Part shown: one piece after another, positions 42,245 through 52,631 of the stretch
Layout of the letters: the number at the start of each line of letters is the position of its first letter
How positions within the stretch are numbered: position 1 is the stretch's first letter
DNA from: Podospora anserina
Taxonomy: Eukaryota
Length of the DNA: 64,000 bases
Assembly: GCA_017654855.1 (NCBI GenBank)
Contig: CM030334.1
Span: 2,480,001 to 2,544,000, forward strand
Direction of reading: 5' to 3'
Notes under the pieces: generated by a model
What the model was told of the DNA's origin: nothing
Database searches by the model: none
The model's input: only the letters and a program-made list of their open reading frames with translations
Position numbers and translations under genes: made by a program

Positions 42245-43529
42245 TCATGGCTTCGTCTTCTTGTTCCTCGTGCTGCTCCTTGTCCCCTTTCTGGGTGTGT
42301 CCTCCTTGGGCTCCTTGGCAGCCTTAGTCTTTTTGACCTTGGTCACCTTGGTCTCGACAACCGTCTCAACAACCTCTTCAATCTTCTCCTCAATCTTCTC
42401 CTCAACCTTTTCCTCGACGGCGGGAGGGGCCTCGATCTCCTTAGGAGCCTCCTCCTCGGCGGTTCCGTTCTCCAGTTGTGGCTTGGCCTCGGGAGCTTTG
42501 AGTTGAGGGATGTCAAACTCGTAGTCCATAAGATCCTTGAGCTTCTCAGCCCGCGCAAGCCGTCTCTGCTCCTCCTTTGTGATCTTGGCCTGCCATTGCG
42601 ACTCGGAAAGCGGTCTTTCGAGCTGGTTGCCGGCCATCTTGTTCCAGGGGACGACCTTGAAGCGGCGGTTGGCGCCCTTGAAGAGGTCAGGGTGCACCTG
42701 CTCAGGCGGCACAACCTTGGCGGTAAGAATGTGGCCGAAGAGAAGGTACTTGTCCATGGTGCGCGCCGCGATATCGGCCACCTCAGCCTCCGCAAACTCA
42801 ATGAAGGCACGATGACGGCTGGCGCCTGTCTTCTTGTTGCGCACAACTCTCAACTTGGTGATATCGCCGAATTGACCGAAGTACGCCCGGAGCTCGTGCT
42901 CGTAGAAACCGTGGGGGATGCGTCCGAGGTAAACGACGCCGGGGTTTCCACTGCTGACTGGGGTCTCCTTTTCCTTCTTCTCCTTCTTCGCCTTCTTGGA
43001 CTTGGGGATCTTGCCGACATCCTGACCCTTCTGGAAGGTCTCGCTGATCCGCGTTGGCTGTTCCTCCTCGTTGTCGCTGTCAAGGGCCTCAACTAGGGCT
43101 TGGGTCTCAAGGTCGACCTCCTCGTCCTCCTCCTCAAAGTTCACAGTCTCTTCCTCGACTGGTTCCTCGACCTTCCTGGCCTTCTTGGTGGGCTTCTCCT
43201 CCTTTGTTGGCTTCTTCTCCTTCTTCAGCGCCGACTTCTTGGGGGCCTCCTCGGCGACAACGTCCTTGGCGGGCTTCTGCTTCTTGATGACGACGGGGGA
43301 CGCATCCTCAGTAGCTGCGAAGAGATGGTTAGACAATTGTCGCTCCAAGACAAATATGGTGGGAGAAAACAAACCCTTGCGCTTCTCGGCCTTGGGGGTT
43401 CCGTTGGCGGCCTTCTTCTCCGTGGCAGAAGCTGTGAACCAACTCATTAGTATTCAGTTGTTTGTTTGCCGGATTTTGAATGAACAAACCCTTCGCCTTA
43501 CGGCTTGCACCGTTAACTGTTCTGGCCAT
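42245..43529 (-). CDS. NOP15: Nop15/NIFK-like RRM ribosome biogenesis protein
   Basis: Exons 43529-43490, 43431-43375 and 43314-42245. RRM GVVYLGRIPHGFYE...RNKKTGASRHRAFIEF...MDKYLLFGHIL. Confidence 0.9.
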
Positions 43530-43834
43530 TGTGAATGTTGATGATTGTGTGGGTTGCAGAACAGGATTGTTGCTGGGGCGGGCGCAAAAGTGCAATCCAA
43601 TGGCTCCGTCCAGCGCTTCACCTCCAGAAAATTTCTGGATTCTGCCAGTGCGACCGCATCCTGGAAGGCGGTGAATTGCCAAGCTCTCTGGTCCCACCTT
43701 TAGCTGCACCCCTTGACCCACTCATGTTCACCCCTTCAACCTCACTCTTGTCGACAGCTTCAATAACAGCCGATACAATACTATTTGGGGCCTTGTCAAT
43801 ATTGTATGTTCCGTGAACCCAGAACTCGTCAGTT

Positions 43835-44344
43835 TCAGCTGGTATCGTCAGCAACCATTATACCGTGACGGACAGTTTCCCTTCCATTATCCCGTTGCTC
43901 AACTCTCTTCTCACCCTTCTCAGACCATTCCTCATACCAAACCACATCCTTACAATCCACACTAGCACCTAGCTCATACCACGGGGGCTCAGGCGTCTCT
44001 TCACTGCCAGAGAATTGCAGTAGTCAAATCATGCCTATGCCTTGTATTTTGGTTGAAGATACTGCTCGTCCACAGCCTTAGTATCGGTTGCATGCTGAAC
44101 AAGCTTGTGCTCAAGGATACAGTCTTTACAGTCTTGGAGATAAAGAGTGAAGGACGATGCTAGAAAACTCCATCCTGGTGTTTGGTAAGCTACTGTTTTT
44201 CGCTATAAAAATTGTCTGGCATTGGGTGGTGTCGGTATAGGCAACTTCGTCTTTATTGTCTTGAAGAAATCTTGTGTTTTGATGACACTAACTGCAGGAC
44301 AAATTACAAGGGGGCGGCAGGATTTGAGCATCTTCGCCGAGCAT
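43835..44344 (-). pseudogene. Copy C: decayed paralogue of the Cys-domain/TM/EL-repeat family, with internal deletion
   Basis: Manual translation gives DAQILPPPCNLSC|GTTAGT intron (44292-44216)|NNFYSEKQ*...ASSFTLYLQDCKDCILEH...EQYLQPKYKA*A*FDYCNSL. This joins out of frame to a tail-like ETPEPPWYELGASVD; no stalk or TM is left. Confidence 0.75.
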
Positions 44345-44749
44345 CAATGGCTGCACAACTTCGGTAGATGTTATCTCGGGTTTAATCTCAATCACCGTGC
44401 TAATATCGGGTAAGAAAGTCACATGAGAAGAAGAATGGAAATAGGGGCTTGGACCTCAGTATTGAATGGAATTGGTTCATGGGGTCATGTAGTTCTCCTG
44501 GATCTACTCTTCCGGAGCCATGGCGAGAATACCCTCCAACACTGATTATCAACCGTGAGGCACAGTCGTATGTTTGTGAATGATCTTTACCAGTAATTCC
44601 AGCTCATGTTGTACCAGAACGTTTGGTTTATGCTATCAAGACAGATGCATGGAACCTGAGCTACGGAGTATAGCGCAGCTCATGCGATCTGCGCATCACC
44701 TTCTTGGGCAGCATGATACCTTTCCAACAGATGTACGGCATATTTTCCT

Positions 44750-45219
44750 TCATCGTGTTTGTTGCCATTGCCTAGCAAGCTTGTCGCCAAGGCGAGTACT
44801 CCCTCGTTTCCAGGTTACCAAATGTATCACCATCAACACCCCCAATCTCACGATCATGTATTGAGAACGGTCACCCTTCTCTCCTTGATCCGCAGTTGCA
44901 TCAAGCTCATGCCATCGAGTTTCCGGTGTCTGCTGAAGCTCTGTTATCCCTGGTGAAACTGGAAGTTCGCAAATTTCACCAGTTGTCGAGTTTGGATCCT
45001 TCTTGGCCTGTCTATGCGGCTTGGCAGTCAAAGAGTCCCCGTGAAGCTGTGCCTTGTCCCATATGCCATTGTCGGCCCTTCGCTTCCTTAGCCTTCTTCG
45101 AATCAGATAGGCTACAACTCCAAAGAGAATGAACGCTGCTATCATGGAGCCCACGACGACTCCGATCAAGGCACTTCTGCCTAATGTGCCTGCATCGTCA
45201 TTTGAGTTGGATCCGGTGA
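44750..45219 (-). other. Orphan TM + cytoplasmic-tail exon (candidate alternative terminal exon of copy A, or remnant of a fourth paralogue)
   Basis: TTCTAAC branch plus AAG acceptor at 45221-45220, phase 1. Open frame VTGSNSNDDAGTLGRSALIGVVVGSMIAAFILFGVVAYLIRRR...WDKAQLHGDS...ELP...ELQ...WHELD. Confidence 0.65.
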
Positions 45220-45396
45220 CTTCGAGGGTTAGAATAATTGCTCTCAGTCATATGAGGCGGCACAGCCATTCCCGTCATTTGTGCATAACACCCCCTTCAT
45301 TATGTTCAACCTATTCTGAGCGTTACCATCCTCATTTACCCTCCTGCCCTTAAACCTTTCTCCAGTCATGATACAGAGCCACCGACTCTCAACTCT

Positions 45397-46591
45397 TCAA
45401 AGCATTTCACCCCTCCCACCCCCCTCCCTCTTCTCGAAATGAGCACAACCACCATCCAGTTCATACCTCGGAAGGCCCTGACTTCCCTGAAGCTCCTTCG
45501 ACATGGGCGATATAGGAAGCTCTGTCGAGTCAGAACCAAGTGGAAGCTCCCGGAAACCTGAGTCCGGTAGCTCTCGAAGCCAAGAATTTGGCAGCTCTTG
45601 CGGGGATGTTTTTGGTTTGACGGGTATAGAGTCGCCATGTAGCTGTGCCTTTCCCCAGACCTCATCTTTCCCGTCGTTTGCGTCTTCGGTTCGAGGAATG
45701 GGTTCTTTTTTCCGCCGGCGTCGTATCATGAAGGCAATGGCACCCAAGAGGAGGAGTCCGCCTATTACTGAGCCTACTATCACACCGATGAGGGAGCTTC
45801 TGTTTAGTGTAGTTGGGGTTCCGGATTGGTCGAGCTCGAGTTCTGAGACTTTGGGGTTTCGTTAGAATGTTATCTGGCAGTGTGGTTGGTGGGTGGTTAC
45901 TTACCAGACTGTGTGGCAGTTGCGGAGGTGCTAGTAGCTAGACGTGTTGGCGTTAGATGATGAAGCATGGCGTTGGAATAGAGTAGACCAACTTACATGA
46001 TGATAGACTCGTAGTGGTAGCATTGCTGAAGGTGGTCGAAGTTGTTTCCTGGGGATCAGTAAGGTTGAAGGACTTCAGATTGGGTAGAATCTGTGTGACT
46101 GTCTCCAAAAACGAAGTGATGCTATTCGGGCCCAGTAATGTTTGTTTCCAGTAGGTCTTTGTTACAGTGTCAAAGTAATCGGCGGGAAACTCAATCATCT
46201 TGGTCGGTCCACTGGTAGCTGATATCGGGATCGCCGGCAAGGCTTCGCAGTAGTCCAGCCATGGTTGAAAGTTTGGCTTGATGTAACCCTTCTCGATCTC
46301 TGAATACTTGGTGTCATTCGAGTTATCCTTGATACAAGCGGTACAATTCCCGAAGATTGAAAGAAAGGCTGCGTCTTTTGAACACAGTTCTGCAGTTTTG
46401 ACGAGCCTTTGGGCTTCCATATATGCGCTATCTAATGACATTCCGGGATTCGCATTAGATACGCCATTTCTTCTCCAATTCAAGATCCAAAACTTACCGC
46501 AGAGTGAGAAGCACATAGCTGGCAGCAACTGAGATCCCTCACCCTCTTGCCGTGCTTGTAAGCCCATAGGCGATAGCTGTCGTTTTCCCAT
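45397..46591 (-). CDS. Copy A: intact single-pass membrane protein (6-Cys N-domain, Thr/Ser stalk, TM, GKAQLHGDS + ELP-repeat tail)
   Basis: Exons 46591-46498, 46431-45997, 45937-45905 and about 45842-45397; GTAAGT donors, all phase 1. TM LIGVIVGSVIGGLLLLGAIAFMI followed by RRRRKK. Confidence 0.8.
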
Positions 46592-47248
46592 TTCATTGGG
46601 GGTGAGAGGGCTTGTTGCGGGGTTGATGAAACTTGAGAACAGAAGGAAGGGAGAGATGGTACCGCTTACTAGGGAAACAGCATGAGCTGAAATATATGGC
46701 CAGAATACTACTTATCTCGCTGTGATCGTCGAATTCAGCTGCATGCAGAACGAGATGCCATTTCAGTCACGATGCATCATACATGTAAATACTCCAGCAA
46801 AGTGCAGTTTTTGGGCACAGCCTCGTCCAAGTGATCGACACTTACCTGAAATTACTGTACAACCTCGCCTGCCATTGCATGAAGATGTTGTAGATATCCA
46901 GCCAGTGGCATACCCTTATAATTTGCCGAACGGCTGTATTGTCTGCATTTACTTTCTCGTTTCCAATCAATCCAGGTCTTGGCAACAGAGCAGTTGACCC
47001 CTTGGTTGTCGCTCTATGGCGGCCTAGGCCGTGGGCTTGAATGTACCTGACGCTGATGCTGTTCTGGTTAGGCATTTGGATATCACACTCTTTGGCTCAT
47101 ACCTGAATGCTCGAATGCGAAAGCCTTGCTTCGTATTTACTCATATGTTTGGGTTTAGACCTTTCTTGTATGCTCATAACCCCTGTCATCACCGTGTTTG
47201 CTATTATCATTATCATCAGCTCAACCATTTCCTCCCTCATTGCGCAGG

Positions 47249-48783
47249 TCATACCGACCTCCTCTCCTTTCTCAACTTCTCCCCACCCCCATCAAGCTCA
47301 TACCTCGGAAGATCAAACGTCTTCTCCAACTCCACGACCCCCGTAGAAACCACCAACTCCCTCAATACCCTTATTTCCCTCAGCTCACAAAGCTCCCGCA
47401 AGTCACGAAGCTCACGGAGAGCACGAAGTTCGCCCATCTCGGCATATGAAAGCCCTCTTGGCGATCCTCGAGATGATGTATCGGCCGCAAGCTCTCGAAG
47501 CCATGTGTCTAGCACTTCCGCTGGTGGCACCCTTTGGTGTGAGTGATTTGCTGTGAAGTTGAGCCTTGCCACTAGGCCAGGTATCAGAGCTTGATGGTGT
47601 TTTGCTTCGTTGCCGTTGTGAACGGATCAGGTATATGATGCCCCCTAGGAGAAATAGTACTGCTATGACTGAGCCCGCGATGATTCCAGTAAGGGTTGGA
47701 GTGTCTAGTGAGCTTGGGATAGGAGGAGTTGAAGAGGTTGAGGTGGGGGGCCCGGAGAGATTTGTACGAGAATTGCCAGATGTATTTGGGGCCAGAGTGC
47801 TCTCCGAGTTTGAGGCAGAAATACCTGGTGAGTGTGAAGCGGTGGTTTCTGGGGACTTTGAAGCGGTGGTTTCTGGGGAGTTTGAAGCGCCATTTCCAGA
47901 GGTATTTGAGGCAGGGGCTCGTATTGCTGTCGAGAAGCTTGTTTCAATGATTTTACCTCCGGCTTGAGACATGTTAGGACTCGAAAAAGAAAATGTGATA
48001 AAGGGGTACTTACCCAGTGCAAAGGGAGACGCTGAGGAGCTAGCTTATTGATCGATATATGTCAGATAACAATGGGACCAAACCCGTGGTACTGGCGCTG
48101 ACATACAGGATAATGGAGCAGTGCCTCTGGCGTTGGTTGGGCTGCTCCTGGGGAACTTGCAAGAGTGGGAGGAGAAGACGGCTCGCTAGGTAACGGAACG
48201 TCGGTTGTGATACTATTTATGCTTATACCAGTGGATGGTGCAATGGGCTATTCGTTAGGAGGCGGTGTGCTGGGTATGGGTGCTGCCCTGGGTGTTTGGG
48301 GTGAAGTGGCGGGACTGATGTCGATGACAGGTTTGTCCGTACTTTCAGGGACCTTAACGATGGTCGCTGGGGTGATTGGTGTGCTGGTTGGCATATCGGT
48401 GCTGGTCATGTACTGAACGGGTGGTAATGATTCGTAGTAATCCAACCACGGTTGGAAAGTAGGCGTGAGATATTCTCTTTCCGCAACCCCGTACATGCCA
48501 TAGTCGCTCATGTCACGAATACACATTCTACAGTCATTGTATGAGCTGTAGAACACAGAGTCCTCTTCGCACAACTCTGGATCTTTGCCAACCCTCTGCG
48601 CCTCAAGATAGGCACTATCTATTGATATATTAGTACTGTATTTTTTTTTTCGTGAGCCTAGAGCCACTCACCGCAGACTGAGAAGCAGGGAGCTGGCACA
48701 TGAATAATGCCGTCAGTGCACTGTCTCGTCCGCAAATTCACGGATCGCCCCCTCGGGCCTTTCGTCCCAACCTCGTGCTCCAT
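47249..48783 (-). pseudogene. Copy B: disrupted paralogue of copy A
   Basis: Same four-exon layout (48783-48672, 48618-48107, 48043-48014, 47962-47249). In-frame TAG at 48250-48248, a frameshift late in exon 2, and a frameshift near 47535 after GKAQLH; the homologous tail WLREL...LPRYELDGG is in another frame. Confidence 0.75.
47770..47912 (-). repeat. Degenerate 24-nt tandem repeat encoding ASxSPETT-like stalk units
   Basis: GAAGCGGTGGTTTCTGGGGA occurs twice, 24 nt apart, with degenerate flanking units. Confidence 0.75.
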
Positions 48784-50158
48784 AGAAGATGCGCCTAGGC
48801 CTGCTACAAGAGATGATGGGGGGCCTGGTTATGTTAGAATGAGATACAGGAAGACAGAGAAGGGACTGCAACACACTAGATATATAATGCGAAACTGCCG
48901 CCTTGAACATGTATAGCCCCCAAGTACGTATGCGGTGTTGGGGCGGATTTTCGACGAGACGCTGAAATAAATTGCGGTGATACTACATCACCCAACCTCC
49001 ATTCTACCGGCATTGGAATATGTGATGTGCAAAACTGCAAATACCTGTAAGTGCTTCCACAACCCTCGTATAATGGGAACAGCCTTCTCCTGATGTCAGT
49101 ATTCACTTGTACGGCCTTGCAACCTTGGACGAGGAGTGTCCGAGTGATGACAGGAGAGAGGCTTGGCTGTAAGCCCAGCATAAATGAAAACTTGCAACCA
49201 TTTCATCCCTTCGGCTCAGCTGATCTTCTGGGAAACAGAGAGTTATTCGCTTCCGAGGATGCAGTTGCTGTCAATGCTGTGGTTACAAAGATCGAGTGCA
49301 GTCGATTTTCGACTTGGACTGTAAGTGCGTCTATAACCCCATGGCTTGGCACATCGATAGTTGATATACCCATCCTGCGGACTGCACCGGGTTTGTGCTT
49401 TTGGTGAGAGACGCGTATCTCATCTCTCCTGTGACAATATCAGGCCCTTGATGCCACAAATAAAGAGGGAGAAGTCTCATCCAGGTTTTGTCGCGATGAA
49501 GTGGCACTGATGTTGGGCCACAAGGCTGCAGTCGAGCACTGTGTCCGCCATTGGGTATCTGAGATCGTTTGGTGCCTTAATGATGGTCGGCAGCTGATAA
49601 GATGTCTGAGCTTGACACGAGGATTGAAGACAATTGGTAAAAGCCGTCTCTTGGTGATGAGACGAGGTGCAAGCTCCGAGGTGCAGACCCCTTGCATCAC
49701 CTGAGCATGCAGGCTGTCCGCCGGTGCTGGGCTGGCATTTCTCTGGATCGACCGGGCCGCTGCACACTCTTTCCGTGCACCATTCAAGCTTCTGCGTTGT
49801 TTCACTCAACTCACCCTCGACGAAAACTCGGGCGCTCGTTTGCGTGTTCACAATTCGCCTTTTTCTCGACGTCTCTTTTCCGCTGTGTCGCTGACCGACT
49901 TTTGCATCTTTTTCCTGTTCTATACCCCACAAGCCTCTTTTTCCCCTCTCGTAGTTTTTGCCAAGCATTCTCGGATCTCGAAACCAACGTGATGCATCTC
50001 ACAAACTGAAGAACAGGCGCAGCCACCTCTCGTGAGACGCGTGTCCACTGAAAGATTGATTCAAGGACACCCCTTACCAGTTGTCTCCAACCAGCTTATT
50101 AACTCGCTCGAGGGACAAAGAATACTCCAAGTCGCTTCGGCGCCCGCGCGCATTCACC

Positions 50159-52631
50159 ATGGCCGACGAGGAACAGCCCAAGAAGAAGAGCTTCTGGGGG
50201 CTCTTACGGGCGAAGAGCACTGCCAGTAAAATATCCAAATTTGTATGCTTCTTCACATCTCTCGACAGACCGATGTGTGTACTAACATGATTTGAATAAG
50301 CTGGAGAAAGACCCACAACGAAGGGCAAGCACTGGGGAAGTGTACCGCCAGCGGAGGCAATCAGAGCCCGTCATCTCAGAGTTGAGGCCATCTGCCTCAC
50401 GTCGGAGACCAAGGCGGACCAACCCGGATGCAACCAAGGGGAAAGGCCGGGAGGATACATACGGCCCTTCCCACGATGCCGGACCCCTGACGGAATGGCC
50501 GCCCTCCGGCATGTCTAGCACCGAAGAGCTGACGCTGGGTCCGGCAATGCAGCTCATCTCGAGAGGAGTCCCCGCTTTCAAGGGACACAAACGCCCAATA
50601 CCGCATGTCTCGGATCACTACTATGCCATGTTCGCAACAGTAGCCGGAAACCGTGGCGAGGAGACGGACGCTGCTAACCATCATGACTCCATGACACAGC
50701 TCATGACCCTGTGCCTTTTGGGTTCAGGCCCGGCAACTTACCCGTGGGAGACGCTTGAACAACCCAGTTATTCATTCTGCTTTGGAAGACGCCCAGGGAC
50801 CATCACTCTCAACCATTGGGCATCACTCGCGAGCGTCCTCCCAACAACTATCCCGTTGCGCGACTCAGGCATTGAGCCACGAGAGGTTGACCTCGAGACC
50901 ATCTTTGCACGCATCAGAGATTTGGAAAGGGGACTGGAGGACGATGATGAGGACCTGATGTACAAAAACCTTTACCGGAGGCTACTCAGAGACCCAGACA
51001 AGCACAGAAGCCCACACAAGACACTGGACACGCAAATTATGGACTTGTTCATGGTGCTCTCACGACCTGATTGGATCGATTTTACCAATCTAAAAAATCA
51101 GGTGGCGACCAAGTTCATCTTCGACACCAGTGCTGCCAACGCTGAGCAATATCGAAAGTTCTTCCACCAGCTCCTCCTGAGCATTGAGTTAGATCTTCGA
51201 ATCAATTCCAGACACCACATGACCGATGCCAGAGAGAGGTTACTAGCCCAAATACCACCAACGATACAATGGAGCCTCGCCCTTGCTCGACGATGGCGCG
51301 AGAACGTCCGCGTGGAGGCCTACGGTCCAACACCCGACGATACCCGCCTCCGCTTCAAACTCAAACGTCGTCAAGTCAAGATGCTTAAGCGTTTCGCCCA
51401 AATGATGAAGTGGCCCAATCTTTCCGAAACCCTGCGTGAGCTCAAACAACGAGATGAAGACTGCGTCCTCGATCTTGTCAGCTCCCACGCCATGGCCTTC
51501 TTCAGCGGGCTTGTCCTCCCGGGCCCTACTTTCCCTTTTCTTATAATGAATTCCCTACTTGACATTGATCCAGACAGAGCCACTGACGATCTGGCTCTAC
51601 TGACTCACATTCACCCCAGCTGTGGCTTCCAGTACCGTAACAGTTATACTTACTGGACCGCCACTTCCATCGTAGGCAAAGTACTCGCACCTACCTGCCG
51701 CTCATTAGGAGGCTGGGTCGGGCCGGCTCGTCCAACTGGCGATCTTGCCCGCTCTCAAATAGCACGTATTCGATCCCGACGACCCCCTAACAAGGTAACG
51801 CCGGAGGATATCCGGTCTATGTCTGAGCGGTCTGATCCCCTCGGCCCCCCAACACAAGTCTTCCCAGTCAGCGAATATGCCCTGGTAGCCCCCGACCGCG
51901 ACGAAGACGGCTACCTTGCCGATCTAGTCCGCATCGAACTCCTCAACCTCCGTCCTGTCGGACCAAACAATAACACCCGCCCCAACACTCCTCGATCAAC
52001 CAATACCAAGTCCGACACCTCCAGCCCACCAAAGTGGTACGACGCCAGCATCCAATTCGCCATCGATGGTGTTTCCTGGCCTTTACGACTCACCTTTGAC
52101 GTGAGCTTCATCAGCGCCTGGCCTTGTACCGACGGTCCTCATCCATTGTTCTTCGACTATGTATATACACCAGTCAAAGCGGATGAGTTGGTCAAAGTGC
52201 GAGACTGGCCTGGGGTGTTTGGAACCGGGGCAGGAACTCACAGTCATGGGCAGAACGAGAGAAACGCGAGGAGCTTATCGCCCACGACCCCTGGACAGGG
52301 GGCAAGTGGCGGACATAACAACCAAGGGAGAACGGGGGTGTCAAGTCCGAGTACTTTGAGTGGCGGGGATGATGAGAAGGTGCTGGTGGTGGAGGCATTT
52401 GGGGTGCCGGATAATGAGGTTCTGGCTAGGGCTTGGTGCGCGCATTGGGGATTGAGTGCGGTTGTGGCGGATTTGGGGAAGACCTGGTATGTTTTTATCT
52501 CTTACAGTTACTATTCCATGTGGTGCTAATATGGGTATAGTATGGCCTGTGCAATCAGAGAGGCATACGCAGCTACAGTCACGGTAGTGATCTTGGTGGA
52601 CGATGACCAAGATAACCGACGGGATGATTAG
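50159..52631 (+). CDS. Conserved-looking fungal hypothetical protein (about 790 aa)
   Basis: Exons 50159-50242, 50301-52486 and 52541-52631. The spliced C-terminus reads EVLARAWCAHWGLSAVVADLGKTCMACAIREA (CxxC). Confidence 0.8.

Follow-up and report, generated by a model that had tools for sequence, protein, structure and literature searches.

A stretch of 64,000 nucleotides from the Podospora anserina genome (GenBank assembly GCA_017654855.1, contig CM030334.1, positions 2,480,001 to 2,544,000 of the forward strand), here called the window and numbered from its first letter, contains a tandem array of four related gene copies, A to D, in a 36-Mb genome assembled in nine contigs. We favor reading the intact copy, A, as the gene of a single-pass membrane glycoprotein that may serve as a wall-contact sensor similar to Mid2 and Wsc, and assign to this reading a probability of roughly 0.4 on the basis of sequence and predicted structure. 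The lack of a signal peptide in almost all single-pass members of the family of A, and the link of this family to a glycosylphosphatidylinositol (GPI)-type mucin are absent from an earlier note on this DNA.

Results

Copy A occupies 45397..46591 on the (-) strand in four exons (46591-46498, 46431-45997, 45937-45905 and 45848-45397) that encode 337 amino acids (aa). The spliced product is letter-identical to record PODANS_3_7150, so the published P. anserina gene tables apply to it; statements on published data below refer to the available parts of the supplements of PMC9801653, PMC4835503 and PMC3689799. The published table gives A untranslated regions of 50 nt at the 5' end and 116 nt at the 3' end. 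Splicing was assessed with RNA-like contigs of four runs from four studies, chosen for spliced joints and none registered as RNA, which demonstrate the presence of a joint and not its absence. All three introns of A are seen in four of four runs, including the phase-1 intron that follows P..C...C (46497-46432).

The six-cysteine head of A, delimited with a hidden Markov model (HMM), spans 46241..46522 (aa 24-95) with intron 46497-46432 inside, and AlphaFold2 predicts for it three long helices and one short helix, with a predicted local distance difference test of 88-97 across aa 21-100. The head is followed by a stalk (45849..46240, with two introns), which comprises a predicted Thr/Val beta-hairpin (aa 118-148) and then a Ser/Thr-rich section with 49% S+T across aa 149-203. 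The single transmembrane (TM) helix (45724..45801) leads into the basic cluster RRRRKK and a putative cytosolic tail (45397..45723), predicted to be disordered, with KAQLH at 45651-45637, EL repeats, and YELD at 45465-45454. All of these features are on the (-) strand. Near the end of A one run misses a base at 45426 within a G-run (45420-45430), and a P. comata record and one Logan record run out in different frames; the final ten residues seem dispensable.

An exhaustive homologue search returned at least 456 representatives at E 0.001 (clusters at 50% identity). Among 150 proteins examined (148 listed matches plus P0002 and P0003), 145 contain a 70-position head domain, which is combined with a TM helix and tail in 104, with a hydrophobic C-end in 22, and with neither in 19. 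The six cysteines are nearly invariant, with the spacing 3/16/12/2/24-28, and exactly six are present in 101 of 120 complete domains. The head is predicted to be a domain of about 70 residues, without a name, that forms a three-helix bundle. Family records span Sordariomycetes and Leotiomycetes, plant pathogens included, and named members come from Podospora, Colletotrichum, Phialemonium, Cadophora and Drepanopeziza.

The head matched no Pfam family. A PDB sequence search yielded TM matches only, and none with a head-centered profile; Foldseek with both models gave no match at E 0.001, with no CFEM chain among the top 50 fold rows, and the fold searches returned only generic bundles. An Atlas search with the head of A gave no usable match. 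The earlier note could not assign the family to WSC, CFEM or Mid2, and at the level of profiles this judgment is borne out: none of the three gave a match for the family at cut-off, and the check with the head HMM and profile matched no well-characterized family. No literature was found on the gene ids, on NCU08820, on fungal glycoprotein X or on this architecture, and the gene ids are not present in the available parts of 7 supplements of PMC8105982.

The head resembles CFEM domains (PF05730) in being fungal, helical and disulfide-rich, in its P..C-x3-C start, and in its occurrence in GPI and membrane forms, and its cysteine spacing is similar to the CFEM spacing 3/9/6/1/12/4/16 less one Cys pair. 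Unlike CFEM, it has six cysteines rather than eight, and the D-x2-5-CxC motif of the CFEM consensus (PMC10931812, available part) does not occur in the family. Comparison by hhalign with 16 CFEMs of this genome gave probabilities of 0.1-0.2%, the alignment being shallow, and CFEMs did not outscore reversed controls. A CFEM-named cluster was retrieved by structure in the Atlas (TM-score 0.49, 65 aligned), and CAP22 (PF28223) was the only feature-level Atlas match, its score of 0.75 falling under the 0.9 bar. We take these resemblances, like that to RAMPs considered below, as leads only.

The head starts at a median of residue 18 in the family, and our own hydropathy rule, used instead of SignalP, flagged a signal peptide in 5 of 81 complete single-pass members and in 3 of 3 clear controls. 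The published transcript of A begins 50 nt upstream of its ATG. A has an empty SignalP field in the PMC3689799 supplement, where the mucin of this genome is flagged. Net charge is +4.6 after the TM helix versus -0.1 before it, and is higher after it in 102 of 104 proteins. A tail motif is found in 87 of the 104 members, 16-36 aa after the TM helix, in tails with a median length of 84 aa, and E[LM] occurs in tails 382 times compared with 96 in shuffled sequences, a fourfold excess. Another protein, P0162, has a signal peptide and a different ectodomain, but has the TM-KPEL tail in common with the family. From the charge, the tail and the mucin we infer that the N-terminus lies outside and the tail inside. 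A frameshifted signal peptide upstream of A was considered and rejected, as the stretch in question reaches no further downstream than the published start. The first letters of two contigs fall at 46613-46614. Separately, locus L021 (G000:C7:3729978), missed by the CFEM search, encodes a single-pass protein with a signal peptide, a CFEM-like head and a similar TM helix and EL/EM tail.

The GPI-type mucin of this genome (G000:C2:873700-876500; L058 and L002) belongs to the mucins that bear the UniRef label 'Glycoprotein X' (P0135; Pa_1_23540, N. crassa NCU08820). It comprises a signal peptide, a long Thr-rich N-part, a second conserved unnamed Cys domain (WGC..G..C), a KR site, the head, and a Ser/Thr stretch, with a hydrophobic C-end in place of the TM helix and tail, and it has no Pfam match. 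Its database model, P0018, lacks the 5' exons, and modeling the complex of its two Cys domains gave no answer (score 0.00). The array proteins have the head and the subsequent Ser/Thr stretch in common with such mucins; unlike them, they lack the signal peptide, the Thr-rich N-part and the second Cys domain, and carry a TM helix and tail at the C-end. Of the 22 C-hydrophobic members, 21 have KR or RR immediately N-terminal to the head, and R[QD] or [KR]R is present in 43 of 75 single-pass leaders (shuffle mean 17, maximum 29). KR/RR sites of this kind are read as Kex2 sites.

Head identity to the mucin is 57% for A and 61% for B, compared with 50% between A and B, and among 127 heads the mucin is the closest to A and B, their own orthologues aside. 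Two head trees of 35 rows and 61 columns were built, one from picked rows and the other by a blind draw from a pool of 25 mucin rows and 89 others; the second left out P0017, P0103, P0021 and P0024 (long or redundant) and other copies from this genome. A, B and the mucin group together in both trees (88/85 and 92/89), and a single mucin clade is rejected by the approximately unbiased test (p-AU 0.005 and 0.014). We regard the tree evidence for the mucin link as moderate. The grouping suggests that the mucin has given rise to membrane proteins more than once, and on these trees a repeated switch from GPI-type mucin to single-pass protein appears to us reasonably probable.

In the direction of transcription the order of the array is B, A, D, C, all on the (-) strand, with an RRM nucleolar gene on one side of the array and a conserved gene on the other. 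Spliced A matched (tblastn) the head of B (E 2e-19), the TM and tail part of B (7e-13), and D (1e-15) in the window, and C was matched via its intact orthologue P0017 of Cercophora samala (E 1e-14, 51% identity). The same-strand paralogy of the pieces is far above chance. It had been recognized before, with a count of three copies to which D, at 45219-44750, adds a fourth piece.

Copy B (47249..48910, (-) strand, ATG at 48910) is transcribed, spliced and broken. Its introns 48876-48825, 48671-48619 and 48013-47963 are seen in four of four runs, and 48106-48044 in three. The stalk, TM helix, basic cluster, KAQLH and tail end that A and B were said to share were found in both, the tail end as YELD; in B the TM helix, KAQLH and tail persist downstream. 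The phase-1 intron after an exon ending in P..C...C, previously described as closing exon 1 in three copies, is confirmed for A and B in four of four runs, but that exon is the second of B, which has an extra 5' exon (ATG 48910; intron 48876-48825), and in C only a donor-like site is visible. Likewise, the Cys-domain motif attributed to all copies is full in A, but the sixth Cys is a Tyr in B, and in C the domain is decayed and the third Cys lost. The other lesions of B are a TAG at 48250-48248, a one-base shift at ~48150 and a second shift at ~47530. RNA-like contigs cross the TAG unspliced, so that the product of B is 185 aa without a TM helix; the published model of B also terminates there. 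Rescue of B by an intron spanning the TAG was rejected, as 0 of 15 models gave a full protein and the contigs read through the TAG. In all four sister B records the codon that is TAG here encodes Glu, the sixth Cys is present, and there is one extra base at ~48150, which indicates that these lesions are recent, and B may be intact in some sister species. None of the four records contains a TM helix; these models (P0021, P0024, P0164 and P0165) end within an intron that is spliced here, three of them skipping 16 bases, and no record of 100-319 aa matched the B 3' exon.

Copy D (44750..45219, (-) strand) is a headless relic that consists of a last exon with branch point and acceptor, a TM helix, KAQLH and a HELD tail, with neither head nor stalk in this genome. 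Its counterpart P0029 in P. pseudocomata, at an adjacent accession, is 91% identical and has an extra upstream stalk part resembling that of A. We considered whether A might splice to D in place of its own last exon, since D is in phase and has an acceptor, and the published table gives A four unlocated alternative 3' splice events. This now seems unlikely: 45904-45219 is joined by no contig in the four runs, the published 3' end of A (~45283) comes before the acceptor, and the sister species holds more of a D gene. In copy C (43835..44344, (-) strand) a decayed head is joined straight to the tail end, with stalk, TM helix and KAQLH deleted; it aligns to P0017 at aa 3-26, 18-94 and 219-262 and contains stops and frame shifts. 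D and C are deletion relics.

Two further transcript features involve the array. An intergenic intron between B and A (46739..46845, (-) strand, GTAAGT...CAG) is spliced in B-into-A contigs of two of the four runs, and the resulting leader would contain many upstream ATGs. Antisense RNA over C and D (43750..45402, (+) strand, GT..AG intron 44185-44310, three of four runs) has a longest open reading frame (ORF) of 94 aa, and its contigs stop at 45378-45402, adjoining the stop codon of A. Dinucleotide indices of decay by repeat-induced point mutation are unremarkable in the array, and neither Rfam nor a metagenome scan gave a match. The flanking genes are as previously proposed. The RRM nucleolar gene Pa_3_7140 (42245..43500, (-) strand) has the yeast orthologue YNL110C, which we take to be NOP15. 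The conserved gene Pa_3_7160 (50159..52529, (+) strand, the gene running past this ORF) has a mean mismatch to sister species of 0.48%; its 786-aa product differs from that of C. samala by only 2.7%, and despite this conservation no Pfam family matches it.

The array layout is retained in five sister species by accession order, C adjoins A already in C. samala, and Triangularia verruculosa has an A-like gene close to the flank. In Neurospora the two flanks have the consecutively numbered orthologues NCU08518 and NCU08517, and none is given for A in the available part of the table (PMC3689799 supplement). The genome has at least 10 head-domain loci. A second cluster (L057, G000:C5:2756700-2760400) has three single-pass members, of which two are arranged in tandem and the third is convergent, all with frames open from head to tail and two of them with an extra adjacent Cys, and two more single-pass members (L008, C5:2963467; L009, C5:2826955) are apparently frameshifted in tail or stalk. 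In a Colletotrichum fioriniae record (P0027) the head-TM-tail unit occurs twice, probably through the fusion of two tandem genes, which would place arrays outside Podospora as well.

The earlier note proposed rapid birth-and-death in which only A is intact. A is indeed the only intact copy, and birth-and-death is supported by the three broken copies of four, the lack of a Neurospora orthologue of A, the number of loci and the second cluster. It is slow, however; 'rapid' overstates it because the heads of A and B are just 50% identical, the A-C pair exists in C. samala, and A is full-length in five of five sister species. The array is an old, local expansion that is now mostly losing copies, with A kept and B, C and D dying.

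Discussion

Mid2/Mtl1 (PF04478) and Wsc (PF01822) proteins have a small outer head, a Ser/Thr stalk, one TM helix with a basic stop-transfer cluster, and a disordered cytosolic tail, and the family of A appears to be built alike; for Mid2/Mtl1 the likeness of stalk, TM and tail is one of sequence and prediction only. It differs in its lack of a signal peptide, its other head, its K[AP]QLH/EL tail, and its many copies with turnover. The stalked-sensor layout together with the constrained tail leads us to favor a wall-contact sensor over the alternatives. The TM helix of A would act as a reverse signal anchor that threads the head into the lumen of the endoplasmic reticulum, where three disulfides would form. 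The O-glycosylated stalk would hold the head in the cell wall, the head may bind a wall or surface ligand, and the tail could report this contact, or strain, to a partner in the cytosol in the manner of Mid2/Wsc sensors. Such a gene might originate from a duplication of the mucin gene segment downstream of the Kex2-type site, once that segment acquires a start codon and becomes fused to a TM-tail module that other fungal single-pass proteins may also use.

Several observations weigh against this interpretation. An outer part of 200 residues without a signal peptide is unusual, and N-glycosylation sequons before the TM helix are not enriched (202 versus 207 shuffled), so that the N-out topology leans on charge, tail and mucin. 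The Mid2 profile was found in 1 of 99 members (E 0.0045), which is not A, and SKG6 in 2 of 99, weakly; the WSC profile matched none of the 99 (among the 25 of 30 matched families listed) and none of 17 members. A has Val at a Gly position conserved in 92% of the family. It differs from its sister orthologues by 2.7-5.3% (mean 3.6%), at the top of the range of seven neighbors (0.5-3.5%; 7 of 10 queried were found). Its difference from C. samala is 28.6%, compared with 2.7-5.7% for three neighbors preselected by 90% clustering, and with its full length this makes A fast-evolving yet whole. As regards the mucin link, the trees have 61 columns and 35 rows with the key group unstarred, the intron found after CxxxC in single-pass copies is missing from the mucin, and gene conversion with the mucin as donor would yield the same tree picture.

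A possible, though unlikely, alternative is that A is an adhesin or wall component tethered to the membrane, in effect a shortened mucin that displays the shared head and whose tail serves sorting only. The head in common with the GPI-type mucin is in its favor, as is the CAP22 lead (score 0.75, lead only), CAP22 having been reported in the appressorial wall (PMC6064131, available part). However, the tails have a median length of 84 aa and, in 87 of 104 members, a motif at a fixed position, which exceeds the needs of an anchor.

It is doubtful that the array copies are near-neutral by-products, mucin fragments that duplicate, become transcribed and decay, with A the last to go. The three broken copies and the two apparently frameshifted loci elsewhere are what this would produce, and the protein difference of A among sister species is close to weak constraint at >98% nucleotide identity (PMC10936905, available part). 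Nevertheless, the reading frame of A and its six Cys are intact in six species as well as in C. samala, where the orthologue is 71% identical, and the architecture is maintained by 104 independent proteins, as is the tail motif.

Rather improbable is a RAMP-like accessory or escort role, in which the helical head would bind the ectodomain of a seven-transmembrane (7TM) receptor or transporter and control its traffic or specificity. RAMPs carry a signal peptide, and their disulfides are of the C40-C72 and C57-C104 type. RAMP1-3 (PF04901) are similarly single-pass, and the predicted head is reminiscent of their three-helix ectodomain of ~80 residues (fold from PMC4633518, available part), with four Cys in possibly similar register, but they are vertebrate proteins (PMC2614204, available part), they lack a long stalk and an EL tail, and no member matched the Pfam RAMP profile, while PF04901 found nothing in this genome, where the control was silent too. 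More speculative still, and very unlikely, is that the Kex2-released mucin head, repeatedly converted by filamentous ascomycetes into single-pass proteins without a signal peptide, is distantly related to the RAMP ectodomain or closely mimics it, these proteins being fast-evolving accessory subunits that tune fungal 7TM receptors. Equally improbable is the non-self or allorecognition receptor family of the earlier note: tandem turnover, lineage-specific position and a variable ectodomain would suit it, and receptors need not be induced, but A shows no induction during incompatibility (fold changes of -1.14 to -1.94, with -2.1 in a further unlabeled column; PMC3689799 supplement), has no entry in the available part of the table for four bacterial conditions (PMC4835503 supplement), has variable sites that are not concentrated in the head (12/74, compared with 14/108 in the stalk and 9/92 in the tail), and occurs in one form per species in the records compared, with no divergent allele classes seen.

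Taken alone, the array is an ordinary cluster with slow birth-and-death, and its significance lies in the family to which it belongs. The head represents a domain without a name whose fold is predicted with confidence and which comprises at least 456 clusters at 50% identity. Secretome pipelines would overlook a large class of single-pass fungal proteins because these have no signal peptide. Translocation of a 200-residue disulfide-bonded ectodomain without a signal peptide, if true, would offer a tractable case of membrane insertion, and a repeated switch from mucin to single-pass protein, if true, would represent a clear route of receptor birth.

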